In this document: positions 4,953 through 58,402 of the stretch, piece by piece | Layout of the letters: every line of letters starts with the position of its first letter | Numbering within the stretch: the first letter of the stretch is position 1 | Source: a virus | Lineage: Duplodnaviria; Heunggongvirae; Uroviricota; Caudoviricetes | Strand: one strand, 5' to 3' | DNA: 64,000 nucleotides | IMG/VR virus record: IMGVR_UViG_3300042992_000089 | Translations under genes and position numbers: made by a program | Notes under the pieces: model-generated | Databases searched by the model: none | What the model saw: only the letters and a program-made list of their open reading frames with translations | What the model was told of the DNA's origin: nothing

Positions 4953-4984
4953 TTTGGAAAGGGTGCAAGGATTAACTATCTTTG
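4953..4984 (+). promoter_or_regulatory. Candidate Bacteroidota-type promoter: TTTG -33-like element plus a TATCTTTG -7 box
   Basis: TATCTTTG at 4977-4984 lies 18 nt upstream of the ATG at 5003. TTTG at 4953-4956 lies about 21 nt further upstream. There is no SD. Confidence 0.35.
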
Positions 4985-5605: not shown

Positions 5606-6689
5606 GAAGTTTAGACATAACATCATTTACTGAAATACTCTTATGACATTCAAAATGTCTAGGAGTATTTTCATTTTCAGGACACCACATCCAGTCTCCT
5701 TTGTTAAACTTGAACATAGGATTGTTCCAACATCCATTACATACATCCTTATTAGTTATGCGTATACAGTTGTTTTGAAACTCATGGTCTTCTGTTGTGA
5801 AGTTAGATATCATAACTCCTTGCTTACCTAATCCCCAATTGAGCCAACTGATTCCACTAGATAATCCTATGTATGTATCTGCATACCACAGATAGTTCAT
5901 TACATTCTCAAGAGATGTATCTTCTAACTTCTCTGCTCCATAGTCATCTGCTTCCTGAGATAGTTCAAACACTCTATATCCTTTAATCTTTAGTGTTTGT
6001 ATTAGTTCTGGCCAGTAATACCAGTGCTTACACTGAGCTGTAGATCTAGTGGAGATACAAATATATTCATTAACTGCAGGTCTTTCTTTAGGAGTGAATG
6101 CAATCCTAGGCTGTAACTCTTCATGCTCTAAGCACAAGATATTACTAGCTGCCTGTTGTAATGGTATAGTGGCAGGATGTACAGGTTCTTTTGATTCATC
6201 CCAATACCAGCCAATCTCCATCATTGCAATTATATTAGGAACAGACTGTCCTCTTCCTACAAACTCTAATTCAGGATATACATCTTTGAATAGTTCATTC
6301 CTGAACGTGGATACAATAACATGACAATCATACACTTCTTTAAACTTTAAACAATAGGGCATCCAGGCAATGCTATCTCCTAATGATTTACTTTCAAAAG
6401 ATATAAACACTCTCTTTCCTTTCACCTCATCTAATATGTTGATTTGCTTAACTGTACGTCCTTGGTATTTGACAAAGATGGCTATGTCAGATAGATACTT
6501 TCTATTAAGTCTAGCCCATGCTCCTGGCTTTAGTTTTGTTTCATAGATAGTTATGTGTTGATCTGTAAACATACCATCCACCTTACCTTTTCTATCTACA
6601 AACTGTATATCATACTCTCTATCTTTTCCTTCGTCTCCTGTTAGTTCAAAGTATAAACCATTAACATGGTGTAAGTTATATGTTATCAT
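5598..6689 (-). CDS. Glycosyltransferase, TibC/BAHT-like (autotransporter O-heptosyltransferase-like, GT9-related)
   Basis: It has the SLGDSIAWMPY...FKEVYDCHV motif typical of the TibC/AAH heptosyltransferase family, and a C-terminal Cys-rich CNGCWNNP...CPENE...CHK segment. Confidence 0.55.
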   Translation of the reverse strand: MITYNLHHVNGLYFELTGDEGKDREYDIQFVDRKGKVDGMFTDQHITIYETKLKPGAWARLNRKYLSDIAIFVKYQGRTVKQINILDEVKGKRVFISFESKSLGDSIAWMPYCLKFKEVYDCHVIVSTFRNELFKDVYPELEFVGRGQSVPNIIAMMEIGWYWDESKEPVHPATIPLQQAASNILCLEHEELQPRIAFTPKERPAVNEYICISTRSTAQCKHWYYWPELIQTLKIKGYRVFELSQEADDYGAEKLEDTSLENVMNYLWYADTYIGLSSGISWLNWGLGKQGVMISNFTTEDHEFQNNCIRITNKDVCNGCWNNPMFKFNKGDWMWCPENENTPRHFECHKSISVNDVMSKLPI

Positions 6690-7264
6690 TTCTCTGTATT
6701 AAAAAAGAATGTTTGAAATAGTCTACCATCTTGTAGATCTTTGCCAAAGTAATCCAAAGATACATGGAATAAGTCACCTCTATATAAAATAAGTCTGTTA
6801 TATACATTACCTATTCTATCTACCATCTCCCACTTTGTATAATCCATACCTTCAACATGTGGTGCTGCAGTTTTTGTTTCTTCTTCTGTATGTTCAGTAT
6901 ATATCCAATTCTTAAGACCTGTTTCTTTGTGTCTAAAGATACCTGTGCCTGAAGACAAAGGAGCATCAGGAGTAAGATAGCACACACCTGCCCAATTTGT
7001 AGTGCCATCACTGTGAATCCATGATCTATCTTGTGCTGTTGTGTATTGGAAAGCACCTGAATTATCATCTCCCCACCAAACTACATCACCTGCAAAGGGT
7101 CTAATATTATCTTGTATTATTTGTTTAATACTATCATTTAGAAAAGACTTAGTTCTTCTACCAGGATAGTTACCAGACTCACCAAATTCTTGACTCATAG
7201 CAAACGCTCTCACCTCATCTGGGTTATTGTAAAAGTCTGATATGGATAACATTTCTACTCTCAT
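6686..7264 (-). CDS. Hypothetical protein, possibly a cupin/2OG-oxygenase-like fold
   Basis: WIHSDG (HxD) and a later LFHVS His give a weak resemblance. Its start overlaps the neighbour in an ATGA arrangement. Confidence 0.3.
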   Translation of the reverse strand: MRVEMLSISDFYNNPDEVRAFAMSQEFGESGNYPGRRTKSFLNDSIKQIIQDNIRPFAGDVVWWGDDNSGAFQYTTAQDRSWIHSDGTTNWAGVCYLTPDAPLSSGTGIFRHKETGLKNWIYTEHTEEETKTAAPHVEGMDYTKWEMVDRIGNVYNRLILYRGDLFHVSLDYFGKDLQDGRLFQTFFFNTEK

Positions 7265-8283
7265 AAGTTGTTGTATGCGTTTATATATAATTGTCTTGTT
7301 CTGTCTGATGTATATCCTTCATTAATCTTCAGTATGTTATAATAATACTTAGCCAAGATTTTAGCTACATTGTCCCAGCTATATTCTTCACGTCTATCTA
7401 ATATAGCCTGTCTACGTTCTTCATAGTTGTGTATTACATTTACAATACCATCTACCACAGACTCTGTTGTAATTTTATTAATCACATGCATACCAGGGAT
7501 AGGTTTACTACCTCTATAAGTTCCCACAATAGGAACTCCACATGCTGTAGCTTCCATCAATGTTAGATTAGGATGTCCTGCTTCTAGCATAGATGGATGT
7601 ACAAAGATTGTACTAGATCTGTATAACTCTCTAGTCTCATCATCTGTAGGGTTTGTTAACTTTAAAGTTAACTTTGGATAATCCAATAGCTCAGAATGTA
7701 TCTCAAAGAACTTGTTGTTATCAGGATGCCCAGCTATTGTAATAGGTAGGTTTAATAACTTAGCTGCTTCTATACCAAATCTAAATCCTTTTCTATCATA
7801 TCCAGAATCACCTGCTAATCCATTGTTAGCTAACATTAATAAAGAGTGTGGTCTTGGTGCATAGTCAGGAGTAAAGAATTCTGTATTAGCCCCATGTGGT
7901 AGATAGAATAATTTATCTGTAGCATCAAAGTAATCTATAAGATATTCAGCATGCGTAAAAGATATAATGCTATGCTTCATAGCCTCTAGGTTTTGCTTAA
8001 ACACCCAGCTATCTTTACCATACCATTCTGTGTGGTGATCATGTAGAGAGTATACATAAGGTATACCTTTATCTCTACAATATAAAGCTTGATTAGCTAA
8101 ATGAGCATGAACAATTGTGTTAGGCCATTTCTCTAAGTCATTCATATATTTAACATCTACAACATGTCCTTGTTTCTCAAGGGCAACCTTATATTCCCAT
8201 GTAAGCCTTTCAACAGCTCCCCATCCATTTGGTGGTATGGTGATTAGTCCTGTTGCTACATGTACTGATTTTATTGGTTCCAT
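7261..8283 (-). CDS. Glycosyltransferase family 4 (GT-B fold)
   Basis: The C-terminal MEATACGVPIVGT matches the GT4 E-x7-E/ACG motif, and the N-terminal domain is typical of GT4. Confidence 0.7.
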   Translation of the reverse strand: MEPIKSVHVATGLITIPPNGWGAVERLTWEYKVALEKQGHVVDVKYMNDLEKWPNTIVHAHLANQALYCRDKGIPYVYSLHDHHTEWYGKDSWVFKQNLEAMKHSIISFTHAEYLIDYFDATDKLFYLPHGANTEFFTPDYAPRPHSLLMLANNGLAGDSGYDRKGFRFGIEAAKLLNLPITIAGHPDNNKFFEIHSELLDYPKLTLKLTNPTDDETRELYRSSTIFVHPSMLEAGHPNLTLMEATACGVPIVGTYRGSKPIPGMHVINKITTESVVDGIVNVIHNYEERRQAILDRREEYSWDNVAKILAKYYYNILKINEGYTSDRTRQLYINAYNNL

Positions 8284-8945
8284 TTGGTTCTAAATTTAAT
8301 TTCATCAATTCTAAACTTCCTTTCTTTCTCTTCACTCATACCTCCCACATTTAATGTTTCCATATGACAGACAATAGAATGTCTTACAAGAGCATGTTTA
8401 ATACCAGCCTGCTTTAGTCTTTCTGCATAGTCGTTGTCTTGATAGTACATATCAAACAACTCATCAAATGGTAAGATCTTATCTAGTGCAGACTTCTTAA
8501 TCACTGTACACCAACCTTGTAATGCTTCTGTCACAGCATAAGATTCATGATACTTACTATCAGTTCCTACAAAATGATTAGGGAACCATCTAGCATATAA
8601 CAATGGGTCTTTAGGAGAGAATGCTTCTATGTCTTCTCTGTAGTCATGTACCTTCATCATCTCTGAGAACCACCATCTTTCATAAGCTACATCATCATTA
8701 GATATAACCACCCAATCACCTTGGCAATATGTAAATGCTATGTTTAAAAACTTGTTGTAGTTAAAAGAATTCTCAGGATGTATATAGTTATGAATACGTG
8801 CATACCTATTTGGATCTTGTGTACCTGAGTCTACTAATTGCACACGAAACCTAAAGTCAATCTCACTATCATGCAATGTATCTATTGTACGTTGTGTCAG
8901 AGCCACATTAGTGCTATCTGTTAATATGATTACATCTATTGTCAT
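8271..8945 (-). CDS. Glycosyltransferase, GT-A fold (GT2-like)
   Basis: VVISNDDVAY is a DxD-like motif in a roughly 220-aa GT-A sized protein. Confidence 0.5.
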   Translation of the reverse strand: MTIDVIILTDSTNVALTQRTIDTLHDSEIDFRFRVQLVDSGTQDPNRYARIHNYIHPENSFNYNKFLNIAFTYCQGDWVVISNDDVAYERWWFSEMMKVHDYREDIEAFSPKDPLLYARWFPNHFVGTDSKYHESYAVTEALQGWCTVIKKSALDKILPFDELFDMYYQDNDYAERLKQAGIKHALVRHSIVCHMETLNVGGMSEEKERKFRIDEIKFRTKWNQ

Positions 8946-11605
8946 TTCTTTCTGAATGATTTATGTGTATTGTCTATTAAAGAAAATCCATCTGCTTGGG
9001 TAGTAAGTCTTTTCTTAACCATTCCCATTTGAGGCCCTGCAAAGATACTATTAAAATACATATCAGCAGCATCCCATTTGTGTGTTCTTAAGTTGTTCTT
9101 TAAAAACTTAGCTGCCTCTTTTGGAAACATAATAGATTGTAAACCAATGATATGATTGGTTACATACATTTCATTATTGATATCTTTAACAATAGGTGAT
9201 TGTGGCCAGCCATGTTCTAGTGTATCAGCATCTCCAAAAGACATATAGTTTATGTTGTTTGGTACCAATAAGTGTGCACATTCCTCAACTTTTCGTACGA
9301 AAAAGTGTATGTCTGTCTCAATGATACAATCTCCTTCACACACCATTAAGAAGTCACAATCATGAAACTCTGTTAAGATGGCATTCTTAAATGCTTCGTA
9401 GCATCCATAATGTGCTGGGGTAAGTGCAGTGCCATACTGTTGAATTTGTTGCTCATTGAAGAGTTCCATTGAAACACAATCTGGTCTGAGACAGTTATGC
9501 TTGGGTGGTAATGACTTATAGGGCTCGTTAAACTGTATGACATATTCCCAGCCATGGTCTTTGACTCTTTCAAGGGATGCTCTACTTTGTTGTTCTCTTT
9601 CATCATTTAATGTGGTTTGTATATGAACTAATTTAATCTTAGGTCTTTCGTTCTTCCATTCAAACTTTCCTGTGTGTTGGTACTTATGTAAGTTATCTTT
9701 GGTCAGCTTAAACTCTTCCAACTTATATTGAACATCTCCATCATAAAAATCCATTTTAATATCTATAGGATCTCCTTTGAATTCAAACTGATAAACAAGT
9801 TCATGGTTCTTAGCTGGTATTATTCTTTTCCACATGTAATCTTCAATAGATACATAGATGTTTCTATAGTCTCTGTTATATGTAAAGAAGTAGAACACAT
9901 AATTGTTTGGTTTTCCAACAACAGGGATGATAGAATAATACTCACTATTTGATGCTACACCTAATCCACTGTGAACTAACAAGGTATCCTTATCATTAGT
10001 AACTAACTGTATATCATTTGGGTTGAAGCTAAAGATAACCTTTGACAAATAGTCTTCTAGATAGTTCTCACATCTTCTTCTCTTACACACTTCGTTCCAT
10101 TCTTCTGGTGTACGCACATCATCAAACTCTTTCAAGAAGAAGTCTGTGTCAAACATAATACCATTGGTCTGAATTCCCTTACCCTGTGGAGTGGGTAGGG
10201 TAGCAGCATATAACTTTTTATCTGTTCTGAATGCATCATTTACTGCAGGGATATCTCTAGGATCTAATACAACATCATATGTAGTATAGAAGAACCTCTT
10301 AAACCCAAGCTCTTTAGCAACCTTAGCTGCATTAAATATATTAGTTAAGACAGTCAATGACTGGTTACTATTCTTCAATCCATTGATGTTGATCTCAGCA
10401 AAGTAGTCTGGTCTGTCATTGTAAAACCTGGTGTAATAACTGTGATGAGTCAAAGGATTATGCACATCGTATATATAACAATCCACCATGTTTTGAATGT
10501 CTATATCTACAGGATAGTGAGACACTAGTATAATCTTTCTACCCAATGGTTTAAGACTATTGATAGTATCCTTAGTCCATTGAATCCTATCCTTAATGTT
10601 TGGATAGGTGCCTAAGATGATACACTCTTCTTCCATTACATCTAAGTTTAATTTTTTGATAATATTGGTAGCATCACTACCAAGATCTCCAGTTAAATAA
10701 ACCATGTTCTCTTCATTGTTATATTTGTTACAGTATACATCTAGATTATACATCACTTTGATCAAGTCATCATATTCCATGGCTTCTTTAATAGCAATAG
10801 GATTTAACTCCTTGTTACCTCTATCTCCCTTTGATGGAAAGAAGAATACATCACATGCTTTTAAGAAGTCACTTACATCATCACGCTCTCCCCAGACAAC
10901 ACAGTTGTTTGGTTTATTAGCCATCAGTGGCTTCCAATAATTCTCAAAGTTACCTGCTTGGTTACCTAGGAAGTGAAACTTCACCTTATAGTTCTTAAGT
11001 CTTTCTGCTAGTTGAAATGCATAAGCTTGATTCTTTCTAGGTGTAAATAGTCCTACAGTTACAAAGTGTTTGTATTCAGGATCTAAGCCATAGTCTTTTT
11101 GTCTTTCTACTTTATTTCTAACCTTCTTATCAATAGGATATTCAATTACTTCTGTAGGTACATCTAAGTCTATGTATTGGAATGAGTTGTAAGAGCTAAC
11201 AAATATAAACTTGTCAGGCATCCATCTCTTGTGCTTAGGATTGAATGAGCTGTCATGCGTAGTCTCTGATATCTTCCAAGTTCTATTATCTGAATAGATG
11301 AATGCAGAAAGCTTGTCGTCCATGAACATCTCAGGAAACTCTTCCATCACTATAACATCTGGATTGAACTGTTCAATAATTCCAGACAGTTCACCATACT
11401 TATCTTCTCCTAAAGAATGGAAGTTAACTCCTTCTGTAAGCATTTGAATGATCTTGTTTCGCTGTACAACAAATGACCATGCTAGAAATGAATACTCTAC
11501 CACCTTAATTTCAAAGTAATCTTTTAACAGTTCCACTTTGTTTACTGTTACCTGAGGAGCCCCTCCTGTTGATAGGTGAGGAGTGATTATTAATAGCTTT
11601 TTCAT
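8942..11605 (-). CDS. Large multidomain glycosyltransferase: N-terminal GT4 module plus additional C-terminal transferase-like domains
   Basis: The N-terminus MKKLLIITPHLSTGGAPQ plus FFFPSKGDRGNKELNPIAIKEAMEY matches GT4 N- and C-motifs. The C-terminal 300 aa (GCYEAF...FLMVCEGDCII) look like a second nucleotide-sugar transferase domain, possibly GT25-like, but this is unverified. Confidence 0.6.
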   Translation of the reverse strand: MKKLLIITPHLSTGGAPQVTVNKVELLKDYFEIKVVEYSFLAWSFVVQRNKIIQMLTEGVNFHSLGEDKYGELSGIIEQFNPDVIVMEEFPEMFMDDKLSAFIYSDNRTWKISETTHDSSFNPKHKRWMPDKFIFVSSYNSFQYIDLDVPTEVIEYPIDKKVRNKVERQKDYGLDPEYKHFVTVGLFTPRKNQAYAFQLAERLKNYKVKFHFLGNQAGNFENYWKPLMANKPNNCVVWGERDDVSDFLKACDVFFFPSKGDRGNKELNPIAIKEAMEYDDLIKVMYNLDVYCNKYNNEENMVYLTGDLGSDATNIIKKLNLDVMEEECIILGTYPNIKDRIQWTKDTINSLKPLGRKIILVSHYPVDIDIQNMVDCYIYDVHNPLTHHSYYTRFYNDRPDYFAEININGLKNSNQSLTVLTNIFNAAKVAKELGFKRFFYTTYDVVLDPRDIPAVNDAFRTDKKLYAATLPTPQGKGIQTNGIMFDTDFFLKEFDDVRTPEEWNEVCKRRRCENYLEDYLSKVIFSFNPNDIQLVTNDKDTLLVHSGLGVASNSEYYSIIPVVGKPNNYVFYFFTYNRDYRNIYVSIEDYMWKRIIPAKNHELVYQFEFKGDPIDIKMDFYDGDVQYKLEEFKLTKDNLHKYQHTGKFEWKNERPKIKLVHIQTTLNDEREQQSRASLERVKDHGWEYVIQFNEPYKSLPPKHNCLRPDCVSMELFNEQQIQQYGTALTPAHYGCYEAFKNAILTEFHDCDFLMVCEGDCIIETDIHFFVRKVEECAHLLVPNNINYMSFGDADTLEHGWPQSPIVKDINNEMYVTNHIIGLQSIMFPKEAAKFLKNNLRTHKWDAADMYFNSIFAGPQMGMVKKRLTTQADGFSLIDNTHKSFRKK

Positions 11606-12301
11606 TTATGTAAATCTCTTTTTGTATGGATTATCAATTGTCTGATCTTCTACTGTAATATTTAAAAAGTTAAAACCTTGTAATGGACCACTAAGATACC
11701 CTATCTTGCCTGAAAAAAAAGTATTAAATGCAAGGCTTATTCTAGTTTTATCATCACTTGTTGTTGGAACACTATGTTCTGTAGTAGATGGGAATAGAAC
11801 AATATCTCCTTTATTTACAGGGAAATAAGCTTCAACACAAGTATACATGTTTTGTTCTTTTGCCTGTATTTGTAAATTATTAGGCAATGCTCTTCCAAAC
11901 ATTATCTTATCTGTATTCTTATCTGCATTGAAATATAAACATCCACTAATTATACTGTTTGGATGATGGTGCTGATGATGTGATTGTTCTTTCTTTGTGT
12001 AATTAAACCAAGACTGAGTTATAGATAATTTAAGTCCTTCTGGATTTATAGGATTATACACGTTTATCAAGTAATCATTAAGAATGGACTCAATGAATAG
12101 TTTTACATTACTAAGTTTAGGATTGTTTAAAACATACAAATTGTGTGTTGTAGAGTTTGATGAATTTCTAAATACATCACTTTCATACTCATATGCACAT
12201 TCTATTTCTTCATTAGTAAAGTCTCTATTGATGTTATTTAATAAAACAGGGATAGGGAAGATTGGTACTATTACTCCTCCTTGGTTTTGTTGTTCTGACA
12301 T
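11606..12301 (-). CDS. 2OG-Fe(II) oxygenase (TIGR02466-like family common in marine phages)
   Basis: The pattern HHQHHHPNSIISGCLYF ... GDIVLFPS ... H ... RISLAFN matches the conserved H..HPxS..SG.YY / FPS..xH / RISISFN signature of that family. Confidence 0.6.
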   Translation of the reverse strand: MSEQQNQGGVIVPIFPIPVLLNNINRDFTNEEIECAYEYESDVFRNSSNSTTHNLYVLNNPKLSNVKLFIESILNDYLINVYNPINPEGLKLSITQSWFNYTKKEQSHHQHHHPNSIISGCLYFNADKNTDKIMFGRALPNNLQIQAKEQNMYTCVEAYFPVNKGDIVLFPSTTEHSVPTTSDDKTRISLAFNTFFSGKIGYLSGPLQGFNFLNITVEDQTIDNPYKKRFT

Positions 12302-12302
12302 A

Positions 12303-13229
12303 TTATAAATTATTATTGATTGCGTGAATTACTTGTTCTACAGATGGATGACATTCAAAAGTTTCTTTCTTCTCTAAGCATCCTATTAATGGTTGTACAT
12401 AATCTATTGTTGGCCAATACTCAAGAGCATATTTCATATTAGAATTACAATGTAATCCACAACCTCCTCTTACATATATGTGCTTGCCTTCTTGTCTATG
12501 TGGTGTACGAAACTCTGGATTGATAGGAGATCCTAACTCAACAATGTCAGTTTTGGTTGTGCCTGCTAGATGTAGAATACCTGAGTCCATGGTGATAACA
12601 ACCTTAGCATTGTTAATGAGATGCCAAGTTTGAGCGATGGATGTCTTATTCATAAGGTTTATAACGTTATCGTCCATCTTATGTACAGGTTTGTTTACAT
12701 TAAAGAATCCTGTCTCAGAACTATCCTTACCAACTGCCACCACTTTGTAGCCCCATTTATTTAATTCATCAACTAGTTTAAGCCAGTTCTCTTGTGACCA
12801 AGTTCTATTGGGCCAGCTATTAACAGGATGTATCACAGCATATCTACCCTCTACAGAAACATTAGGTTCTTCTGTAGGCTGATAGAAACATTCTAATTCA
12901 TCTTTTCCAAGCATAAATCCTAGATGTATAGCATGGAACTGCCTAATATCCATCATGTTGTGCTTCATCTCTATACCACGCTCATCTTTCTTACCCACTA
13001 GATAGAATGAATTATGTATAATGTAATTACTTTGTATGTACGTCATGTCTATAGAGCTAGCTTTGTAGCTCTTTTCTACATAAGGGTTCATCTTAAACAA
13101 CTCAGGCATCTGAGAGATGACTATAATCTTTCTTTGATACGCATCATGAAGCTTTTTAATAGTGGGGGTGGCACAGATAAGATCACCCAATCCATTACAT
13201 TCTTCTAGATTTAAACAAACTGGTTTCAT
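12303..13229 (-). CDS. Glycosyltransferase family 9 (ADP-heptose:acceptor heptosyltransferase-like)
   Basis: GLGDLICATPTIKKL, WPNRTWSQENWLKLVDEL..GYKVVAVG and VITMDSGILHLAG are the classical RfaC/RfaF-type GT9 motifs. The track ORF begins at a TTG at 13391 with a junk N-terminus. I place the start at the ATG at 13227-13229 (MKPVCLNLEEC...). Confidence 0.75.
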   Translation of the reverse strand: MKPVCLNLEECNGLGDLICATPTIKKLHDAYQRKIIVISQMPELFKMNPYVEKSYKASSIDMTYIQSNYIIHNSFYLVGKKDERGIEMKHNMMDIRQFHAIHLGFMLGKDELECFYQPTEEPNVSVEGRYAVIHPVNSWPNRTWSQENWLKLVDELNKWGYKVVAVGKDSSETGFFNVNKPVHKMDDNVINLMNKTSIAQTWHLINNAKVVITMDSGILHLAGTTKTDIVELGSPINPEFRTPHRQEGKHIYVRGGCGLHCNSNMKYALEYWPTIDYVQPLIGCLEKKETFECHPSVEQVIHAINNNL

Positions 13230-13246
13230 CTGTTGGTTATTTAAAA

Positions 13247-13263
13247 CAAAGTTACTATATTTG
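13247..13263. promoter_or_regulatory. Divergent candidate promoter pair (TAnnTTTG boxes on both strands)
   Basis: TAACTTTG on the minus strand at 13254..13247 lies 17 nt upstream of the GT9 ATG. TATATTTG on the plus strand at 13256..13263 lies 24 nt upstream of the ATG at 13288. This is a strand-switch point. Confidence 0.4.
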
Positions 13264-13287
13264 TTGGAAATAAAAAACATTTTTACT

Positions 13288-13656
13288 ATGAAAATTGAAG
13301 TTTCTGTGGGGGAAGTTGTAGACAAATGGACTATACTTTCTATCAAAGCTCTGAACATTACAGACAAAGACAAACTAGTTAATGTTTTCAAAGAGAAAAC
13401 TTATCTAAATGATGCTGTACATCCTGAGATATTACATGATCCTTTGACAGACATGTTGCTTGAAGTTAATAAAGCTCTTTGGAAAGTGGAAGATCTTATA
13501 AGAGACTTTGAAAGAGCTAATAGTTTTGGAGAAGAGTTTATTGATTTAGCTAGATCTGTCTACAAGTTGAATGATAAAAGAGCACATATTAAAAAAGAAA
13601 TTAATATTAAGTATGGGTCTGACTTTGTAGAGGAGAAATCCTACCAGCCCTACTAA
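13288..13656 (+). CDS. Hypothetical protein
   Basis: This is an ATG-initiated ORF. The track version starts at a GTG at 13162 that overlaps the divergent promoter and is probably an over-extension. Confidence 0.5.
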   Translation: MKIEVSVGEVVDKWTILSIKALNITDKDKLVNVFKEKTYLNDAVHPEILHDPLTDMLLEVNKALWKVEDLIRDFERANSFGEEFIDLARSVYKLNDKRAHIKKEINIKYGSDFVEEKSYQPY

Positions 13657-42092: not shown

Positions 42093-42305
42093 TTACTGAT
42101 TTGTTTCCTCCAAAGGTAACGTAATTTCTTGAGATTTCAAAATATTTTTTTGATGTTTTAACAAATCTGGATTAGCAACAATCTCATTATAAAACGTCTC
42201 TGCAGACTCTCTGTGGGCAAACCATTTGATTGTATAATCATCTGCTTTCACTGCATACATTGTGCCATTTCCTGGATTGATTTCTTCTATTAACTCTAGT
42301 TTCAT
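42093..42305 (-). CDS. Hypothetical small protein
   Basis: This ORF shares its MKLELI N-terminus with the ORF at 52223. Confidence 0.4.
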   Translation of the reverse strand: MKLELIEEINPGNGTMYAVKADDYTIKWFAHRESAETFYNEIVANPDLLKHQKNILKSQEITLPLEETNQ

Positions 42306-51310: not shown

Positions 51311-51571
51311 TTAACCTAACCTTAATTTATTATCGTCCCATAATGCACTGACATTTAACTCTTTACACCATTGGTTGAACTTTTCACGCTCTGTAGGTGT
51401 AAATGGTTTGTTAATCTTTACAGTGATTTTGGGTCTGTCTTCTGTCTTTTGCTTGTTTTTAAATAATTCTAAGATATTTCTCATAGCTATTTCGTTTTGA
51501 ATGTTAATATTATTCTGTTTCATGGTCTGCATCATTTGGTTCAGGATCATATTCAGTGAGGTCATCTTCAT
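51311..51571 (-). CDS. Hypothetical protein
   Basis: ORF whose start overlaps the upstream ORF. Confidence 0.35.
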   Translation of the reverse strand: MKMTSLNMILNQMMQTMKQNNINIQNEIAMRNILELFKNKQKTEDRPKITVKINKPFTPTEREKFNQWCKELNVSALWDDNKLRLG

Positions 51572-52079
51572 CTAAATCATCCTCCCAATCCTCATCATCA
51601 TCATCATCGTATTCATGCTCATCCACAAAACTTACATGTCTAATAGTCACCTTATCATGAAAAAAGACTACATTTCTATGTATACCTTCTTCATCTTCAG
51701 AGTCAAATACTTCCAATGCTATATCACCATTCTCACCATCTTCACCATAAACATAGGCATTAATGATTTGAACTGTGAGGTCTTCCAAGTCATCAGAACT
51801 ATCACCTTGGTCCCACCAACCTATTTGGTCAGGTGTTGCAAGGATTTCTTCTTTATCATCCTTATTCTGTGTTGGCATAACAATGTATGGCTCAACTGGT
51901 GCACCATTGAAAGCAATGTAGCTTTCCATATCTTGTGGTATGTGTGTTAGTTCATGGAGTTGTAGGTATTCATATACCTGTCCATAAACCACATCCTTTT
52001 GCTTTGATGCAAACCACATGCCTTTCTCTAGTTGTCTAGGCATATATGATTTGAATACAAGTTTAGCTAGTGTAAACAT
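51510..52079 (-). CDS. Hypothetical protein with a highly acidic C-terminal tail
   Basis: It ends DEHEYDDDDDEDWEDDLDEDDLTEYDPEPNDADHETE. It is the first gene after a 140-nt non-coding stretch. Confidence 0.45.
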   Translation of the reverse strand: MFTLAKLVFKSYMPRQLEKGMWFASKQKDVVYGQVYEYLQLHELTHIPQDMESYIAFNGAPVEPYIVMPTQNKDDKEEILATPDQIGWWDQGDSSDDLEDLTVQIINAYVYGEDGENGDIALEVFDSEDEEGIHRNVVFFHDKVTIRHVSFVDEHEYDDDDDEDWEDDLDEDDLTEYDPEPNDADHETE

Positions 52080-52222
52080 ATCGTGTGTTTTTAGTGTATG
52101 TTAGCAAATATAGGTTAATTAGTTAATATAAGGACCCAGCTAGGGGAAGCTGAGCCCTATATATCTCACACAAACTAACCACTAATATTGTATTGTTATA
52201 AAGTCAGGTAATTCGTTCATGG

Positions 52223-52501: not shown

Positions 52502-52852
52502 AATCGTGTGTTTAGAATGTGTGTGTAAAAAGCGAATATATAGCCTAATGTTGCCTCAGCTGTATATTCTTATGTGTATGTCATAACGCAACAAATAAAA
52601 TCCCTCTGTACTCAAATGTATAATCTGTGGTTCAGGCTCATACGTCCTTTATGATAGTCCACCCTACCTCTATGTCTAGACCATAGATTAATTGATTATA
52701 CATTTGTCTATCCTTGGGAAATAGAAATGGTACATTAAATGATTAAATAGCTGTATTACAATTCAATTACCTCCAAGCAAATAAGCTTGATAGGACGTAA
52801 TAGGTCATGCATAACCTTTTACAACTATTTAATCAATATAATAAAGAGCAGA

Positions 52853-53092
52853 CTAATTGCCTGCTCCAATATCCTGAACAAAATAGAACTCACCACCATG
52901 AATGAGTCTAATACCACCATATAATATACCATCTATATGAACAAACTTATCCAACACACCTTGTATTGGCAATTCCATAGACTTAATACTATCAATAGAG
53001 ACTTGTTCACTCTCTATAAAGAAATCATCCTTACTAATAGGACTAATGTTATTGCCAAATAATGTATAGGCAAGTTGTTGTGCGTTATTCAT
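52853..53092 (-). CDS. Hypothetical small protein
   Basis: ORF. Confidence 0.35.
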   Translation of the reverse strand: MNNAQQLAYTLFGNNISPISKDDFFIESEQVSIDSIKSMELPIQGVLDKFVHIDGILYGGIRLIHGGEFYFVQDIGAGN

Positions 53093-53254
53093 ATAAATGC
53101 TATTTAATGCTATATATATTGTATTGTATAGCGTGAATTAATGTATCTTGAAAAGATAGCTAAAAGGGCCTATTAAGCACACACCTCTTCAAACATTCAC
53201 ACGAAATATATTGATTATCAGTGTGTTATATTGTCTGAAGTCTTGATGTTGTAT

Positions 53255-53277
53255 AAAAAAGGGGGCACGAGGCCCCC
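53255..53277 (-). terminator. Rho-independent terminator (minus strand)
   Basis: On the minus strand, GGGGGCCTCGTGCCCCC (a 6-bp GC stem) is followed by TTTTTTATAC. It lies 7 nt after the stop of the 53284 gene. Confidence 0.65.
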
Positions 53278-53283
53278 TTAATG

Positions 53284-53691
53284 CTAGTAAGCAGCTAGTT
53301 CTTCGTAACTAACAGCTTGCTTAGCAGTGCTATCAATTACAAATTCTTCTTCTTCACCACCTTTACCAACTGGTGCACAGATTGTAGTGATCTTACCATC
53401 AAGGCTTTCACAAATGTTAAGCTTCAAAATGGCAGCAATCACGTCTCTTTTAGGTGCCCCATTATCAAGAGCGTTCTTCACAGTCAAGCTAACTCTCTTA
53501 CTTAATGGACAAGTGGTGCTTGTACCATCTTTTAGTGTTAATACCATTGACATTGCTTTGATGACACCATCATTGAACCTGCTGATAGTACCTGGACAAA
53601 ACTTAACGCTTCCACCTGCGTGAAGACTTGCAACTGTTCCCAATTCAGTTAGCTTAGGAGTGCTAACAAACTCTTTGTACATTAGTGCCAT
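53284..53691 (-). CDS. Hypothetical protein (first gene of the minus-strand early block)
   Basis: The ATG at 53689-53691 gives MALMYKEFVSTPK.... The track extension to 53793 runs into the G-rich repeat region and looks spurious. The gene is followed by a strong terminator. Confidence 0.5.
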   Translation of the reverse strand: MALMYKEFVSTPKLTELGTVASLHAGGSVKFCPGTISRFNDGVIKAMSMVLTLKDGTSTTCPLSKRVSLTVKNALDNGAPKRDVIAAILKLNICESLDGKITTICAPVGKGGEEEEFVIDSTAKQAVSYEELAAY

Positions 53692-53717
53692 TGTTTTTCG
53701 TTTTAGGCTGTTAATTA

Positions 53718-54160
53718 ATAGGGGGGATGTGTCGATCCCCCAATTGTAGGAGGGGTGGCAAGCTGGAAGTACCCTCTCCTCCCATGGACACAATAGGGGT
53801 AGGGGGTATGTAAAATTTTTGGTAGGGGGTTGTTAATTGTTCCATGTGGAACATTCTGTCTAAGCAATTGAAGACTAGGGGGTTAGCTGGCCCAAGTGTT
53901 AAATGTTGTGTCACACTTTTTCAAATATTTGTGACAGATTTGGCAAGTTATAACAAGTCTATATTCTGCCAAAAGTCAAGCTATAGCTTTACCCTAGGGG
54001 ATGTTTAGTCAAGGGATAGCTTTACATAATGTGTCTTATTATACCCATAAGCATATAGTTTGGTCTTTATAAGGGACATTATATCTTAGGGCATATAAAA
54101 ATAAATTTGGTGGGTATAAATATTTACCTGTATCTTTGGGGGGGATTTAGGGGGGGCCCC
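53718..54160. repeat. Array of six to seven same-orientation TAGGGG(G) motifs plus palindromes in a 500-nt divergent intergenic region
   Basis: The motifs are AATAGGGGGGATG (53718), AATAGGGGTAGGGGGTATG (53793), GGTAGGGGGTTG (53821), GACTAGGGGGTTAG (53873), CCCTAGGGGATG (53996) and TTTGGGGGGGATTTAGGGGGGGCCCC (54135). A perfect palindrome GGGGGAT-gtgtcg-ATCCCCC lies at 53722-53741. The genome background is about 35% GC. Confidence 0.6.
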
Positions 54161-54195
54161 ATCTAATACCTCTCTATTAATTAAAGCTTTGATAT

Positions 54196-54438
54196 ATGGT
54201 AGTATTATTACTTGGTTGTATTGTTGGTCTCTTGAGTGTGATTGTAGTGGTATGGGGGTTTGTACACTTTGAGGAGTGGGAGATAGGGATAGAGTTTCTA
54301 CCTAAACATTATAACAACTTTGAGCTAGGAATATCGAATAGAAACTACGAGCTGACAGATGGAGGACTAGAGCAAGAGCTTAGAATAGGTCTGTTATTAT
54401 TCACCTTTTTAATCATGTTTAGGAGATTTGATGCATAA
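54196..54438 (+). CDS. Small membrane protein
   Basis: It has two hydrophobic segments (VVLLLGCIVGLLSVIVVVWGFV and LLLFTFLIMF) and is the first gene of the plus-strand block. Confidence 0.4.
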   Translation: MVVLLLGCIVGLLSVIVVVWGFVHFEEWEIGIEFLPKHYNNFELGISNRNYELTDGGLEQELRIGLLLFTFLIMFRRFDA

Positions 54439-54496
54439 TATAGCATTAACTTTTATAATAACTAAAATAGTTATTTGTAGATCGTCCAGATATACA

Positions 54497-54504
54497 TACC
54501 TTTG
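54497..54504 (+). promoter_or_regulatory. Candidate -7 box TACCTTTG
   Basis: It lies 12 nt upstream of the ATG at 54517. Confidence 0.3.
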
Positions 54505-54516
54505 TATCAACTAATT

Positions 54517-54867
54517 ATGGAAGCAAAACCAATTGTACAACGACTAAAGACTTCAGTCAATGACAGTATTGTCATGGCTGAGAAGTATTATAGAATCTTG
54601 TCAGCTGTCAATGACCTGAAGCTTACAAAGAGGGAGATACAATTGATAGCCTTTGCTGCTATAAAAGGGAACATCTCTTATGCTAATATACGTAAGGAGT
54701 TTTGTGAAAGATACGACAGTACGTCCCCAGCCATAAATAACATTATCTCCAAACTAAAGAAGATGGGGATATTTGTAAAGGATGGGACAAAGGTGAAGGT
54801 TAATCCCATCATCTTGCTCAACTTTGAGAAAGATCTTGTATTGCAAATAACTCTAGCACATGGATAA
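54517..54867 (+). CDS. Hypothetical protein (possible DNA-binding regulator)
   Basis: An ATG at 54517 gives MEAKPIVQR.... The track start at 54502 is a TTG. Confidence 0.45.
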   Translation: MEAKPIVQRLKTSVNDSIVMAEKYYRILSAVNDLKLTKREIQLIAFAAIKGNISYANIRKEFCERYDSTSPAINNIISKLKKMGIFVKDGTKVKVNPIILLNFEKDLVLQITLAHG

Positions 54868-55246
54868 GCCTATAAGTATGTCTGTCAAGGACTACCTTGT
54901 TAGGACCCTTGCTGTGAAGATGATGATTTCTGAGAAGACAATTGAGACAGTGATAAACCACCAGTTTCAATCTGCCAACGAGGCGATGGACACAAATAAC
55001 AGTATTGAAATCTCTGGGTTTGGGAAGTTTTATTTCAATGAGAAGAAAGCCAAGAAACGTCTAGAAGACTTGACTAGGAAGAAAAACCTAATGCTTGAGT
55101 TCCTAGCCAGTGCTGAAACCTCAGAACAAAAGAAACGTTCCTCTCAGGTGACACTAGAAAAAACAGAAGCTCTGATCAATTTACTAAAAAGTAAAATTAT
55201 ATATGAAGATCAACTTCTCTCAGATTTACGAGGGCTGGAAGAATAA
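54860..55246 (+). CDS. HU/IHF-like (DNABII family) DNA-binding protein
   Basis: The N-terminal helix MSVKDYLVRTLAVKMMISEKTIETV...ANEAM is followed by IEISGFGKFYF, the DNABII GFGxF signature. Confidence 0.5.
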   Translation: MDKPISMSVKDYLVRTLAVKMMISEKTIETVINHQFQSANEAMDTNNSIEISGFGKFYFNEKKAKKRLEDLTRKKNLMLEFLASAETSEQKKRSSQVTLEKTEALINLLKSKIIYEDQLLSDLRGLEE

Positions 55247-55550
55247 CCTGTTCCCAGCTGATGACATGAAAGAACGCATTAGGGAAATTAGCCAACAACG
55301 TATGGCTATTTGTGATACCTGTGAATGGTGTTCTGAAAACAGACCTAAGAAACCTCGAAGGTTTGATAAGCATTGTACACATTGTGGGTGTGTTCTATCA
55401 GCTAAGACTAGGTGTCTATCTTGTAGCTGTCCTATAGAAAAGTGGGGAGCAGAGATGGAATCACGAGAGGAAGAAGAACAATTAATACAAACAGTATATG
55501 GAAAACAGGGAAGTGAAAATTCAGAAGATTCCACTGGACAGACTAATTGA
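55203..55550 (+). CDS. Cys-rich zinc-binding protein
   Basis: It contains CDTCEWC...CTHCGC...CLSCSC. An alternative non-overlapping start lies at the ATG at 55266. Confidence 0.4.
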   Translation: MKINFSQIYEGWKNNLFPADDMKERIREISQQRMAICDTCEWCSENRPKKPRRFDKHCTHCGCVLSAKTRCLSCSCPIEKWGAEMESREEEEQLIQTVYGKQGSENSEDSTGQTN

Positions 55551-55755
55551 GACTTTAGTTAACCTTTATAACCAGGGAATAGACTATATTGATATATCTG
55601 GAGTACCAGGTGTTGAGTTTGATAGAATGGCTATTGTCTTTACAAAAGACTATATGACAGAAGAAGGAAAGAAAAACTTTGGAGAAGACAGTGAGTTAGA
55701 CTTGGAGATTGGTCCAAGCAAACTAACAGATGACGATATAAACCAGTTAATATAA
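55498..55755 (+). CDS. Hypothetical protein
   Basis: ORF. Confidence 0.4.
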   Translation: MENREVKIQKIPLDRLIETLVNLYNQGIDYIDISGVPGVEFDRMAIVFTKDYMTEEGKKNFGEDSELDLEIGPSKLTDDDINQLI

Positions 55756-55759
55756 TACA

Positions 55760-56044
55760 ATGAGTAAAAAGACTCACTATACAGAAGTGATATCTATATT
55801 ACAAGAACTAAATAAAGACTTCCCTACATACAATTTGGGCAGACACTTAGCTACAGCTCTTGCAGACTATGGTGACATTTGGGGTATAACAGATAAAGAA
55901 CTTGCATTTGCTCTAAGTAAGTATAAGAGTGAGATAGAGATGGATGTACCTCACACAGATGAATCTGAGTTAGAAAAGATTATAAAAGAAGGTATGGACC
56001 TTGATAACATCCTGAAGGAGGAGGAAGAAGATGGCGACTATTAA
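55760..56044 (+). CDS. Hypothetical protein
   Basis: ORF. Confidence 0.4.
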   Translation: MSKKTHYTEVISILQELNKDFPTYNLGRHLATALADYGDIWGITDKELAFALSKYKSEIEMDVPHTDESELEKIIKEGMDLDNILKEEEEDGDY

Positions 56045-56363
56045 GAAAACTACATACGTAAATACAGAGCTTGAATGGGCAGAAGTACAGCTAAAGTCTT
56101 GGAAAGCATACGTTGATGCTAATCCACTACATGAATTGAAAGATAGGATTGAGTGGAAACCTACAGCTAAAGGAGGAATGTTACCTATGGTCATAGCCTC
56201 TATTGAAGCTCAAGGTAAGTTTGTCCAAGAGACAATGAAAAACTACCTAGCATTGGTAGAAGTGGTAGATAAGTTAAGAAACATGGAAGAAGCTAAGGTG
56301 GAAGTGAGAGGAAAAGGTGAATTATCAGGAGCTGCTGCTGAGTTCTTAGCAAATAGAAAATGA
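56031..56363 (+). CDS. Hypothetical protein immediately upstream of terL (small terminase candidate by position only)
   Basis: The N-terminus is MATIKKTTYV, and its stop overlaps the terL ATG (ATGA). Confidence 0.35.
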   Translation: MATIKKTTYVNTELEWAEVQLKSWKAYVDANPLHELKDRIEWKPTAKGGMLPMVIASIEAQGKFVQETMKNYLALVEVVDKLRNMEEAKVEVRGKGELSGAAAEFLANRK

Positions 56364-58402
56364 TAGAACTACAAAATATAGATTACAAAGACTGGTTTAT
56401 AAATCAGAAGCGTATTCCTGATAAAGACTCTCAGGAGTGTAAGCCATTCTTTGACTTTCACAGAGAGCTATGTTTAAATGGAGCCATGATGGGGGGTGTT
56501 TATATCAACCCCTTTTTGTATTGGCACCTAAACATATGGCATACAGAGGTAGATGTAATAGATGAAAGAGGAAGGATTGCACAGAAATATGCCAATCCTT
56601 TTTTAAGAGATAATGAATGGCTTGTGACAAATGAAATTGACAGAGCTCAACAAGAAAAGAGGGGCTTAGTCATTCTAGGTATTAGACGTTTTGCCAAGTC
56701 AGTTTTAGAAGCATCCTATATTGCATGGGGTGCAACCTTTGATGAAAACAGTCAGAATATCATAGCAGGCTTAAATGCCCCAGATATAAAACTGATTACT
56801 GATAAGATTGACAAAGGATTGAATTTCATTCCTGAGTATTGGAGATGGCAGAGAATTGAGGACAACTGGAAGAACCAAGTGACTCTAGGTATAAAGACCA
56901 AGTCTGGTGAACGTATCCCATTCTCTTCCATTCTAATACGTAACCTTGATGAAGGTAATAATGAAGAGGCCATTGCAGGTACAAAACCACGTAAATTAAT
57001 TATAGATGAAATTGGTAAAGGAAACTTTCTTAGAGGCTTACAGGCTGCTATTCCAGGTTTCACTACACCCTATGGCTGGGGATGTAGCCCCATACTTACT
57101 GGGACTGGTGGGGACATGAAGAAATTCATGGATGCAAAGAGCTTAATGTTTGACGTAGACAACTTTAACTTCCTTACATATAATAATAGTAAAGATGACA
57201 AACGTATACATGGATTGTTCATCTCTCATAAATATAGAATGGAGGCAAAGGATGATTCTACACTAGGAGCATATTTGAATGAACCATCCACCTCAGACTT
57301 ACACAATGTAAAAATGCTTGTAAGTGATGAAGAAAAGGCAACACAGATTACTAATGATAATTTAGAAAGACTTAAGAAAGCTGGAGATAGAATAGCCTAT
57401 CTAAAAGAAAAGATGTACTATCCTCAGGAAGTGGATGACATTTTCTTAAATGAGGATACTAATATATTTGATATTGACAGTGCTAAGAGACAGAAGTTTA
57501 GATTGTTGCAACAAGAAAGAACAGGAACTCCTGTTATCTTGTTTAATGATGGAGAGAAGATAGCTCATGAGTTTACAGATAAATTACCCATCTCTAACTT
57601 CCCTCTAAAAAACTCAGACCTAAAAGAAGCACCTGTTGTTATATATGAATTCCCTGTGGATAATCCTCCTTATGGATTGTATGTAGCAGGAGTCGATCCA
57701 TATAGACAAGGTAAGTCTGCATATTCAAGTTCACTTGGATCTGTATACATATATAAAAGGATGCATGAAATTTCAGGTGAGAAGTATCAAGATATGTTCG
57801 TAGCTTCGTATTGTGCAAGACCTGATAAGAAAGAAACTTGGGAAGAACAAGCTAGACTTCTTATTAAATACTATAACGCTAGAACTTTGTGTGAGAATGA
57901 TGATATATCATTTATTGAATATATGAAGAGTAAAGGAGATGCACACTACTTAGAGAAACAACCTGAATGGCTTAAAGAGATTGTTCCTAATACCACTGTA
58001 AAAAGAGATTATGGAATTCATCGTTCAAGTCAGAAGATAATTGACTATCTTCACACCTGTTTAAAGAAGTATATGGAAGCTCCAATCTTTGTAGAGAAGA
58101 ATGACGCAGGTGAAGTGATTAGAGAAGTCTTGGGTGTGAGTAAGATATTTGATCCTGTATTGCTTGAAGAGATTATTCAATACAATGATCAAGGTAACTT
58201 TGATAGAATTATTGCTGCAGAGTTAGCAATAGCACAAGCATTAAAGATGGACCCAATAATGGGTAAGATAGGTGGTACATCAGATGAGAGAGTAGCTTCT
58301 ATGTTCAATAAGAAAAGAGGCAATATACTTTTCACTGAAGCTAGGAACAACATGTTTGGACAATCAAGAAATAAATATAAACGAAATAAATTGTTTTCAT
58401 AA
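56360..58402 (+). CDS. terL: Terminase large subunit
   Basis: GLVILGIRRFAKS is a deviant Walker A, PRKLIIDEIG is Walker B, and the C-terminal half has the terminase nuclease layout. Its size (680 aa) and position before the portal also fit. Confidence 0.8.
   Translation: MIELQNIDYKDWFINQKRIPDKDSQECKPFFDFHRELCLNGAMMGGVYINPFLYWHLNIWHTEVDVIDERGRIAQKYANPFLRDNEWLVTNEIDRAQQEKRGLVILGIRRFAKSVLEASYIAWGATFDENSQNIIAGLNAPDIKLITDKIDKGLNFIPEYWRWQRIEDNWKNQVTLGIKTKSGERIPFSSILIRNLDEGNNEEAIAGTKPRKLIIDEIGKGNFLRGLQAAIPGFTTPYGWGCSPILTGTGGDMKKFMDAKSLMFDVDNFNFLTYNNSKDDKRIHGLFISHKYRMEAKDDSTLGAYLNEPSTSDLHNVKMLVSDEEKATQITNDNLERLKKAGDRIAYLKEKMYYPQEVDDIFLNEDTNIFDIDSAKRQKFRLLQQERTGTPVILFNDGEKIAHEFTDKLPISNFPLKNSDLKEAPVVIYEFPVDNPPYGLYVAGVDPYRQGKSAYSSSLGSVYIYKRMHEISGEKYQDMFVASYCARPDKKETWEEQARLLIKYYNARTLCENDDISFIEYMKSKGDAHYLEKQPEWLKEIVPNTTVKRDYGIHRSSQKIIDYLHTCLKKYMEAPIFVEKNDAGEVIREVLGVSKIFDPVLLEEIIQYNDQGNFDRIIAAELAIAQALKMDPIMGKIGGTSDERVASMFNKKRGNILFTEARNNMFGQSRNKYKRNKLFS

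Follow-up and report, generated by a model that had tools for sequence, protein, structure and literature searches.

The crAss-like phages are among the most abundant phages, and their early promoter and genome-end signals are still undefined. In crAss001 and phi14:2 the early genes lie at a genome end and their expression has been attributed to a virion polymerase (PMC8375218; bioRxiv 10.1101/2020.03.07.982082). Middle promoters of phi14:2, which are read by the host RNA polymerase, have been mapped by primer extension (bioRxiv 10.1101/2020.03.07.982082). PhageTerm was used to set the ends of DAC15 (MT074136), whose record is linear (bioRxiv 10.1101/2020.03.04.977157). Here we describe the early/late junction of a further virus, IMG/VR record IMGVR_UViG_3300042992_000089, from which a stretch of 64,000 nucleotides (nt) was analysed (the window). 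The junction, 53692-54195, corresponds exactly to the space that separates the start codons (ATG) of two divergent genes, 53284-53691 on the minus strand and 54196-54438 on the plus strand. The promoter class found in it and the presence of terminal repeats at the DAC15 junction are already known. Within the literature searched, and to our knowledge, two features are new, namely a hairpin with a G-run at the terminal-repeat boundary and a G-tract fused to a -7 box.

Our preferred reading of the junction, to which we give a probability of about 60%, is a genome-end-proximal early control element together with a middle/late promoter that starts in a G-tract. Clustering, conservation, module order, promoter match and homology of architecture are established directly, and the functions proposed for them are read from sequence. 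The junction is very probably an early/late control region containing a promoter (M7), and would sit between a leftward operon of small early genes and a rightward middle/late operon (regulators, HU, TerL and portal). On its left side a hairpin (hairpin 1) and a neighbouring G-rich segment (G-box B) are the counterpart of an element found in cultured Crassvirales within ~50 base pairs (bp) of the right end of the genome, where the direct terminal repeat has its inner boundary. This pair may mark the start of early transcription as well as the repeat boundary, with early transcription probably the work of an RNA polymerase that is delivered by the virion and acts on the first-entering DNA end. 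On its right side the sequence G7-ATTTA-G7, fused to the -7 box of a host-RNA-polymerase promoter, would provide the discriminator and the beginning of the middle/late transcript. It could tune promoter opening, as a G-quadruplex or a GC-rich start, or act through the RNA 5′ end. The intervening palindromes (M3, the two M5 copies, M6 and optional inverted-repeat modules) are probably protein-binding sites.

DAC15 and 'tikkala'/crAss001 share with the window a divergent junction, a G4-6/loop/C4-5 hairpin (45-65 nt upstream of the early gene) and a G-run 10-14 nt further on. Next come an A-rich tract, a TTTG-N19-TAnnTTTG promoter and a rightward operon in which HU and transcription factors precede TerL; in Kehishuvirus the gene order around the HU-like gene is identical. 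The junction in the window is longer, 504 nt against ~200-230 nt in the DAC15/crAss001 type, and has in addition M2, M3, M5, M6 and the G-tract after the promoter. Counterparts of hairpin 1 with the following G-run are present in crAss001, 'tikkala', DAC15 and phi14:2. The g110/g111 junction of phi14:2 reads, outward from the first early gene, TTGGGGATACTCCCCAATT then AGAGTGGGGGAT; that of crAss001 reads CCATAGGGGGTAGGACCCCACTGG then GTGATGGGGGAGGTGGGG, followed by A-tracts and the promoter. Local identity extends to crAss001 and one of the relatives (L003), both of which have CCATAGGGGG. Hairpins of the G4-loop-C4 kind are uncommon in these AT-rich genomes: leaving tRNA genes aside, crAss001 has one in 13.7 kb and phi14:2 two in 59 kb. 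The presence of one in the same 100-nt slot of four lineages is unlikely to be a coincidence.

In two genera this element can be placed relative to the genome end. DAC15 has an annotated exact direct terminal repeat, 1-1842, with five small leftward genes, and the repeat boundary lies inside the divergent junction. Its last genome bases are ...CAGGGGGTATAACCCCAAACTCAAAACCAAGGGGGGACCATGAGTTAAT; the end falls 12 nt past the equivalent G6 and 111 nt from the first early ATG. Kehishuvirus 'tikkala' (L111, OQ198717, 7626-9104), a record labelled circular, contains a perfect ~740-bp tandem duplication that covers the first early genes. The copies meet at ...CCATAGGGGGTATGACCCCACTGGCTAAGTGATGGG / TTCC (the slash marks the joint), inside the G-run and 14 nt after the hairpin. 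This duplication most likely represents both copies of the direct terminal repeat, kept at circularisation, and would give the genome ends of a crAss001-like phage. In both phages the hairpin/G-run pair is found 12-45 bases before the right end of the genome. For the right-end copy in DAC15 and 'tikkala', the early promoter has accordingly to be located within the last 76-111 bp, which are mostly hairpin and G-run. The end position is annotated for DAC15, inferred from the tandem duplication for 'tikkala' and carried over to the source phage by homology. The suggestion of the earlier note on this DNA that the junction holds a pac-like or genome-end site receives indirect support, in that the hairpin and G-run next to the first early gene have positional and sequence counterparts at the terminal-repeat boundary of DAC15 and 'tikkala'.

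In the window, the perfect palindrome GGGGGAT-n6-ATCCCCC that forms hairpin 1 (arms 53722-53728 and 53735-53741) and the imperfect second hairpin between AGGAGGGGT (53748-53756) and ACCCTCTCCT (53771-53780) are both present as the earlier note had described them, and both fold. Hairpin 1 is separated from the early ATG by 27 nt when counted from TAGGGGGG, or 30 nt when counted from the stem, and the next G-run on its other side is 53752-53755. Among 21 distinct relatives most have a recognisable counterpart (G4-6, a loop of 3-10 nt, C4-5), which is degenerate in three. On the early strand between 50 and 53.7 kb no full host-type promoter with both boxes was found. Seven occur elsewhere in the window, the intergenic matches being at 4953, 13664, 20246, 54106 and 54474 on the plus strand and at 42141 and 28312 on the minus strand.

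Several results weigh against the end element as we read it. Hairpins 1 and 2 fold no better than composition-matched shuffles (z ~ -1), and RNAalifold returns only two G/C stems with no covariation, the stems being invariant G/C runs. The support for the hairpins is therefore their conservation and not their folding energy. The phi14:2 authors saw no common motif upstream of early transcripts (bioRxiv 10.1101/2020.03.07.982082). Nor is the element universal: among more distant relatives, the junctions of phi17:2 and Lbo-JY46 are without the G/C hairpin, Lbo-JY46 having a hairpin of a different kind. Exact-pattern scans of IMG/VR with the G7 doublet, with hairpin 1 and with the opening 40 nt of a contig beginning in G-box B each returned a single copy per contig; the scan with the G7 doublet is uninformative on terminal repeats, as the doublet would fall outside a repeat ending at G-box B. 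Self-BLAST of all related loci showed no tandem or terminal repeat of at least 120 bp. Contig ends are enriched near the junction, with about 6 of 21 contigs longer than 100 kb ending within ~3.5 kb of it, yet the ends of large contigs are scattered (52303, 53289, 53555, 53691, inside G-box B, hairpin 1 and M7), and strain hypervariability or loss of coverage at G-runs explains this scatter equally well. Finally, the DFDxD polymerase motif was not found in the 2.6k residues examined of two giant open reading frames (ORFs) of the phage. On balance, whether hairpin 1 and G-box B mark the terminal-repeat boundary in the source phage is an even bet when judged by homology. Their identity as a virion-polymerase promoter is a tentative proposal, and we would sooner expect it to fail than to hold.

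The giant ORFs (4146 and 1744 aa, without family match and with no PHROG match) close the late-strand block upstream of window position 1 (L135, 1-7746). Both are candidates to encode the virion RNA polymerase and ejection proteins.

The promoters of the coliphage N4 virion RNA polymerase offer an analogy to hairpin 1, in that a small GC stem-loop lies near the first-entering end, upstream of early genes, in a phage with giant virion proteins. The two systems differ in their polymerases, single-subunit in N4 and two-barrel in the crAss-like phages. They also differ in the hairpins, which in N4 number three, have a loop of 3 nt and are conserved in their flanks; the junction has one copy, with a 6-nt loop (3-10 nt in relatives). 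An N4-type hairpin promoter was accordingly rejected, on the single copy, the variable loop and the lack of an N4-like polymerase. The concatemer junction of T7 and T3, podoviruses with short exact terminal repeats, has an inverted repeat beside the terminal-repeat boundary, and a hairpin there assists in duplicating the terminal repeat. These phages have no sequence or terminase relationship to crAss-like phages, and the resemblance would be one of analogy. We also put forward, as a speculation that is rather doubtful as a whole, that the end hairpin and G-run are the recognition or loading site of the crAss-like virion RNA polymerase, and possibly a terminase cutting signal too, conserved from gut Bacteroides phages to this freshwater family. 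The G-strand would then run telomere-like, 5′ to 3′, toward the end, and the same G-tract logic would extend to the start of the first host-dependent promoter. An element at the terminal-repeat boundary in two cultured genera, and also found in phi14:2 and this distant environmental family, is an oligonucleotide-sized candidate for in vitro work. A practical outcome is a predicted point at which to orient and cut genome assemblies from the family.

The right side of the junction is occupied by M7, which matches the full Bacteroidota consensus in both boxes and in their spacing (-7 box TAnnTTTG, TTTG 18-22 nt upstream). The A-rich tract upstream of the -33 box is AAAAATAAA. The spacing TTTG-N21-TATCTTTG, and that to the G-tract, is invariant in relatives. 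Motifs of the same class precede g110, g108 and g092 of phi14:2, and the middle promoters of that phage resemble M7 in having an A-rich tract, a TTTG(G) box and TAnnTTTG 18-22 nt later, in sense orientation before middle/late genes. They differ in what follows: P110 of phi14:2 runs straight into the ATG and has no G-tract. A sigma-70 scan showed no excess of sites. M7 is predicted to drive an operon encoding a small membrane protein, an HTH-like (helix-turn-helix) protein, an HU-like protein, TerL and portal. The proposal of a regulatory switch made from the bare sequence finds partial support in the conserved Bacteroidota-type promoter and the HU-like and HTH-like genes downstream. We note a second full host-type promoter, TTTG-N-TACCTTTG at 54474-54516, directly before the start of the HTH-like gene (54517), so that the regulator genes and the small membrane-protein gene have separate promoters, M7 being that of the latter.

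In Bacteroidota promoters transcription starts a few bases after the -7 box. By analogy, the G-tract is expected to span the discriminator, the start site and the first ~20 transcribed bases. With a canonical G-quadruplex motif defined as four tracts of at least three G with loops of 1-7 nt, 54138-54156 is the only one in the 64 kb (G3N1G3N5G3N1G3, G4Hunter 2.2). All 37 distinct junction variants keep a G-rich +1..+26 segment (median G4Hunter 1.73), examples being GGGGTGGAGGGTGGG, GGGGAGTGTGGGTGGGG and GGGGTAGGTTGGGTGGGG, and the two other promoters of this type captured in the scan (13664 and 20246) score ~0. Across the 39 promoter variants scanned, 37 of which are junction variants, 33% contain the canonical motif and 85% a relaxed pattern with at least two G per tract. 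The promoter is present in phi14:2, crAss001 and DAC15 and is there without the G-tract, which would thus be an innovation of the family of the source phage. The pattern of variation suggests selection on the tract as a G-tract. A point against its acting as a quadruplex comes from the window-like clades, in which the RNA of the tract may pair with a downstream CCUCUCU/CU-rich tract to form a stem of -14 to -20 kcal/mol. The CU-rich partner changes in step with the G-tract. More distant clades are without the partner and the G-tract itself is therefore the constant feature. That the promoter-linked tract acts as a G-quadruplex is possible, with the odds against it; a GC-rich discriminator effect, slippage on the G-run and protein binding are equally open. 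Its likeness to promoter G-quadruplexes, GC-rich discriminators and reiterative transcription (B. subtilis pyrG) lies in a canonical quadruplex motif with a G-run that extends from the last base of the -7 box over the expected start. We know of no such G-tract promoter element described for Bacteroidota or for phage promoters, and a literature search found nothing that links G-quadruplexes to crAss-like phages. A quadruplex-type tract on a Bacteroidota -7 box, kept through many variants, would be an unusual promoter design and would give a handle on the timing of the early-to-middle switch.

The G-runs are concentrated in the junction. TAGGGG occurs nine times in the window, fewer than the shuffle mean of 14, and seven of the nine lie within 53719-54153, all on the plus strand (starts 53719, 53794, 53800, 53823, 53876, 53995 and 54148). 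The two others are at 52141 (+) and 28227 (-). A crude scan-statistic upper bound for seven of nine within 504 nt is 6e-11. For runs of at least four G, the junction has 9 of the 43 in the window, whereas other stretches of 504 nt average 0.27 and reach 4 at most; among the nine are a G6 at 53721 and G7 at 54138 and 54150. These counts bear out the six to seven same-orientation TAGGGG(G) copies, some of them doublets with G6-G7, that had been noticed in the sequence, and a motif search across the window found no similar density elsewhere. An additional CTAGGGGAAG reported at 52149 does exist; it occupies 52140-52149, so that the coordinate given was that of its end. The TAGGGG matches are the G-runs of at least four distinct elements rather than a single binding site in several copies. 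A natural variant of the junction, 312 nt long and from the same phage, has three TAGGGG instead of seven.

The composition of the region is likewise distinct, with a GC content of 0.47 at 53600-53899 compared with a background that we measured as ~0.35, the same as the 35% in the earlier note. GC skew becomes positive there and the cumulative skew has its minimum at the junction. It flips with gene orientation at all four strand switches, and was for this reason rejected as an origin signal.

Relatives were retrieved with TerL as anchor, giving 80 related loci with TerL identity of 84-98%. Their intergenic DNA is a mosaic in which short islands are 88-100% identical where adjacent genes are ~72% identical. 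The order of modules is fixed in relatives, over more than 80 contigs, even where the flanking genes are at ~70% nucleotide identity. It begins with hairpin 1 (G4-6, loop of 3-10 nt, C4-5), followed by G-box B and its C/T-rich partner (hairpin 2). Then come CCCATGGACACAA, G-runs and (R)AAAATTTTG(G), and after these GTTCC-N4-GGAAC. Optional inverted-repeat modules and two GTCAAGCTATAGCTTTAC copies 32-33 bp apart follow, and the series closes with ATGTGTCTTATAAGGGACAT, AAAAATAAATTTGG-N21-TAnCTTTG and the G-tract. To the left of hairpin 1 the sequence is wholly different among relatives, which have different early genes there, so that the conserved block begins, on the left, with hairpin 1. The 312-nt variant retains hairpins 1 and 2, M2, M3, both M5 copies, M7 and the G-tract.

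Among the central modules, the M2 core AAATTTTG is found in the phi14:2 junction too. M2b (AAAATTTTTGG) was considered as a promoter box and rejected, as manual inspection found no partner box at the right spacing in either role. M3 is unique in the window and has a fold z-score of -2.2. About half of the relatives have M5, in each case as two copies spaced 32-33 bp apart, and elsewhere in the window there is one weak match to it with four mismatches, at 35333. Apart from this M5-like match, none of the palindromes lying between the G-rich ends recurs elsewhere in the window. The M5 copies are candidate protein-binding sites, and the HU-like and HTH-like proteins are plausible candidate binders of the junction palindromes. 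A zinc-ribbon-like protein is encoded at 55203-55550.

These results bear on other explanations of the junction. The earlier note had listed a replication origin in which the TAGGGG(G) copies serve as iterons bound by a phage initiator. The junction is indeed non-coding, strand-asymmetric and palindrome-rich and lies at the cumulative GC skew minimum, and software-predicted origins of the prototypic crAssphage are near a strand switch (PMC10983915). Iterons are however understood here as at least three direct repeats of one 17-22-bp sequence at regular, helical spacing. The unit shared by the G-runs is only 6-9 nt with differing flanks (the longest family is 12 nt at 83-92% identity) and the spacings are irregular (75, 6, 23, 53, 119 and 153 nt). 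Copy number is not conserved: it varies from 3 to 7 in one and the same phage, and most relatives have 0-5 at or close to the junction. The adjacent genes have no Rep-like or initiator match, the skew is uninformative given its dependence on gene orientation, and the G-runs map to distinct conserved modules. Since TAGGGG belongs to different elements with different flanks and irregular spacing, the iteron reading falls away and we regard such an origin as very improbable; an origin that uses other elements, such as the M5 pair, is compatible with the results. A quadruplex role for the G-runs in general, as plus-strand DNA or RNA structures that switch transcription, replication or packaging independently of a terminus, is less remote, and unlikely all the same. 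Every run is on one strand, 54138-54156 is canonical with its G4Hunter score of 2.2, and sequence-divergent relatives retain 3-4 G-tracts at the same place. Against this, there is a single canonical site, and the other runs are too far apart or are paired with C-runs in hairpins. A transcription start inside the tract would leave the RNA with too few tracts, and in several clades a Watson-Crick stem with the CU-rich partner is predicted instead. The idea of quadruplex DNA thus keeps its plausibility at the promoter-linked tract and loses it at the remaining, non-canonical runs.

Hairpins 1 and 2 might also be no more than 5′-leader structure or an insulator or terminator unlinked to genome ends, with headful packaging from a pac site elsewhere. 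Packaging mode varies in crAss-like phages, pac/headful packaging having been reported for crAss002 (PMC8042965), and many large contigs span the junction. The terminator scan flagged hairpin 1 as terminator-like on the minus strand. The matches at hairpin 1 and M3 are however without T-tails, and hairpin 1 has none in the window or in relatives. The same element stands at a mapped or inferred terminal-repeat boundary in two genera, and contigs that span the junction would arise in any case through the collapse of terminal repeats in assembly. We judge this explanation, too, to be unlikely, on a par with a general quadruplex switch. A still weaker case, and an improbable one, can be made for a small non-coding RNA encoded at ~53830-54100, the model being the early non-coding RNAs that phi14:2 makes in abundance. 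The segment has islands with 88-100% identity among relatives that share ~72% identity in their genes, it contains several stem-loops, and phi14:2 strongly transcribes long intergenic regions. But the segment gave no Rfam match, is partly dispensable (part of it is missing from the 312-nt variant), lacks a bracketing pair of promoter and terminator, and consists of modules that look like operator-type palindromes with variable loops. The early control element at the genome end together with the G-tract promoter is the reading that we retain.

Features of the junction and of the flanking genes (positions in the window; a point in the strand column stands for no assigned strand).
Feature	Position	Strand	Description
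Hairpin 1	53719..53741	.	TA-GGGGGAT / gtgtcg / ATCCCCC; 27 nt upstream of early-gene ATG
G-box B and hairpin 2	53748..53780	.	AGGAGGGGT (G-run 53752-53755) pairs with C/T-rich arm ACCCTCTCCT; conserved; predicted, by homology, to lie near the right genome terminus
M2 unit	53781..53829	+	CCCATGGACACAA, G4-TA-G5, TATGTAAAATTTTTGG, TAGGGGG; duplicated in some relatives
M3 palindrome	53839..53852	.	GTTCC-N4-GGAAC; stem invariant, 4-nt loop variable in relatives
Variable segment	53853..53973	.	Optional inverted-repeat modules; missing from the 312-nt variant
Content of variable segment	53876; 53909-53936; 53939-53973		TAGGGGG; TGTCACA-N14-TGTGACA; TTTGGCA...TGCCAAA
M5	53975..54025	.	Two GTCAAGCTATAGCTTTAC copies (palindromic core AAGCTATAGCTT), 33 bp apart, TAGGGG 53995 between
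M6 inverted repeat	54026..54082	.	ATAATGTGTCTTAT / ATAAGGGACATTAT
M7 promoter	54097..54138	+	A-rich tract; -33 TTTG 54106-54109; 21-nt spacer; -7 TATCTTTG 54131-54138
G-tract	54138..54160	+	G7-ATTTA-G7 then CCCC; first G is the last base of the -7 box
First early gene	53284..53691	-	135 aa; no family match (no Pfam/PHROG); ORF scan
Intrinsic terminator of first early gene	53259-53279		Terminator scan
First gene of rightward operon	54196..54438	+	80 aa; hydrophobic N-terminus; small membrane protein
HTH-like protein	54517-54867	+	Weak; 116 aa; just upstream of HU/IHF-like gene
HU/IHF-like DNA-binding protein	54860..55246	+	PF00216, 38.2 bits (cut-off 22.4); phrog_379

The source phage is a ~112 kb crAss-like phage, a contig of 111,968 bp being among the assemblies with an identical early protein; the 135-aa early product is also called in JGI/ENA/NCBI assemblies. 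The capsid gene of assemblies carrying the identical early protein matches PF23898 Crass_capsid. The Crassvirales traits that were checked (PF23898 capsid, P22-like portal and phrog_6681 TerL) are present, TerL at 56360-58402 matching phrog_6681. Its top isolate matches are Leptolyngbya phage Lbo-JY46 (40%), Cellulophaga phi17:2 and phi4:1 (32%) and then many gut crAss-like phages, with only ~26-28% identity to the TerL of gut Crassvirales. TerL starts ~2.2 kb from the junction and replication genes lie to the left, in agreement with the earlier description of a divergent junction between replication and packaging blocks ~2 kb before terL. The minus-strand block on the left encodes a DnaB-like helicase, a second helicase, a gyrase-B/HSP90-class ATPase and RecA, and has a weak ribonucleotide-reductase-like match. 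Bacteroidota-type promoters precede several operons, which makes a host from that phylum most likely. The phage is probably of the Crass-capsid, Crassvirales type with a Bacteroidota-like host. A blastn search of 53000-57000 against 50,697 phage records gave no match, and Rfam 15 (at the gathering score for the whole window and at a permissive threshold for the region) and ARAGORN returned nothing relevant, with no RNA family or tRNA.

Some observations were made in the reference phages and relatives. Lbo-JY46, the closest cultured relative by TerL, carries at its early/late junction a promoter, TTTGG-N19-TATCTTTG, that is a textbook example of the Bacteroidota type (L107, PP438436, 850-905). 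It is recorded as a cyanobacterial phage, and the promoter type puts its true host in question. In crAss001 (L110, MH675552, 279-680) gp2 is annotated on the minus strand, yet a full TTTG-N19-TTATCTTTG promoter points rightward into an ATG at ~286. The 'tikkala' homologue of gp2 is annotated on the plus strand, and a mis-annotation of the strand in crAss001 is possible. In phi14:2 (L113, NC_021806, 4031-4500) ARAGORN predicts a transfer-messenger RNA (tmRNA) with the tag GSSVQKLAMVA and a tRNA-like T-arm GGGGGTTCGAATCCCCCC, which the Rfam gathering score does not confirm. The prediction falls in the long intergenic region that the phi14:2 study reported as abundant non-coding RNA. A bona fide tmRNA gene (Rfam RF00023, 85.6 bits) is found in one relative (L050, 27-412), ~7 kb into the leftward gene block; there is none in the window.

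Within the window, glycosyltransferase and 2OG-Fe(II) oxygenase genes occupy 5598-13391 (-), between the tail-fibre genes and the next plus-strand block, and may have a role in DNA or surface modification. A neighbouring tail fibre of 944 aa has collagen repeats and an S74 chaperone domain.

Two short conserved islands lie to the left of the junction. Many relatives share the island at 52699-52739 (~40 nt, TACATCTGTCTATCCTTGGGAAATAGAAATGGTACATTA) at 95-97% identity; the sequence to either side of it is unrelated. In three relatives (L004, L005 and L006) the island is split by a ~185-bp insertion with a tRNA-like T-arm, flanked by duplicated TTGGGAAATAGAAAT; ARAGORN called no tRNA in the insertion. 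Two contigs (L041 and L064) terminate at this island. It was considered as a left terminus and rejected, as its flanks differ everywhere, it is duplicated around the insertion in some relatives and the contig breaks are ambiguous. The other island, 35 nt at 52128-52162, is 97-100% identical in five relatives (L017, L018, L024, L025 and L027) whose genes are ~72% identical, and it holds the ninth TAGGGG. On the early-sense strand it forms a hairpin, CTCAGCT-TCCCCT-AGCTGGG, just upstream of a TATATTTG box (52112-52105) that precedes the gene at 51510-52079.

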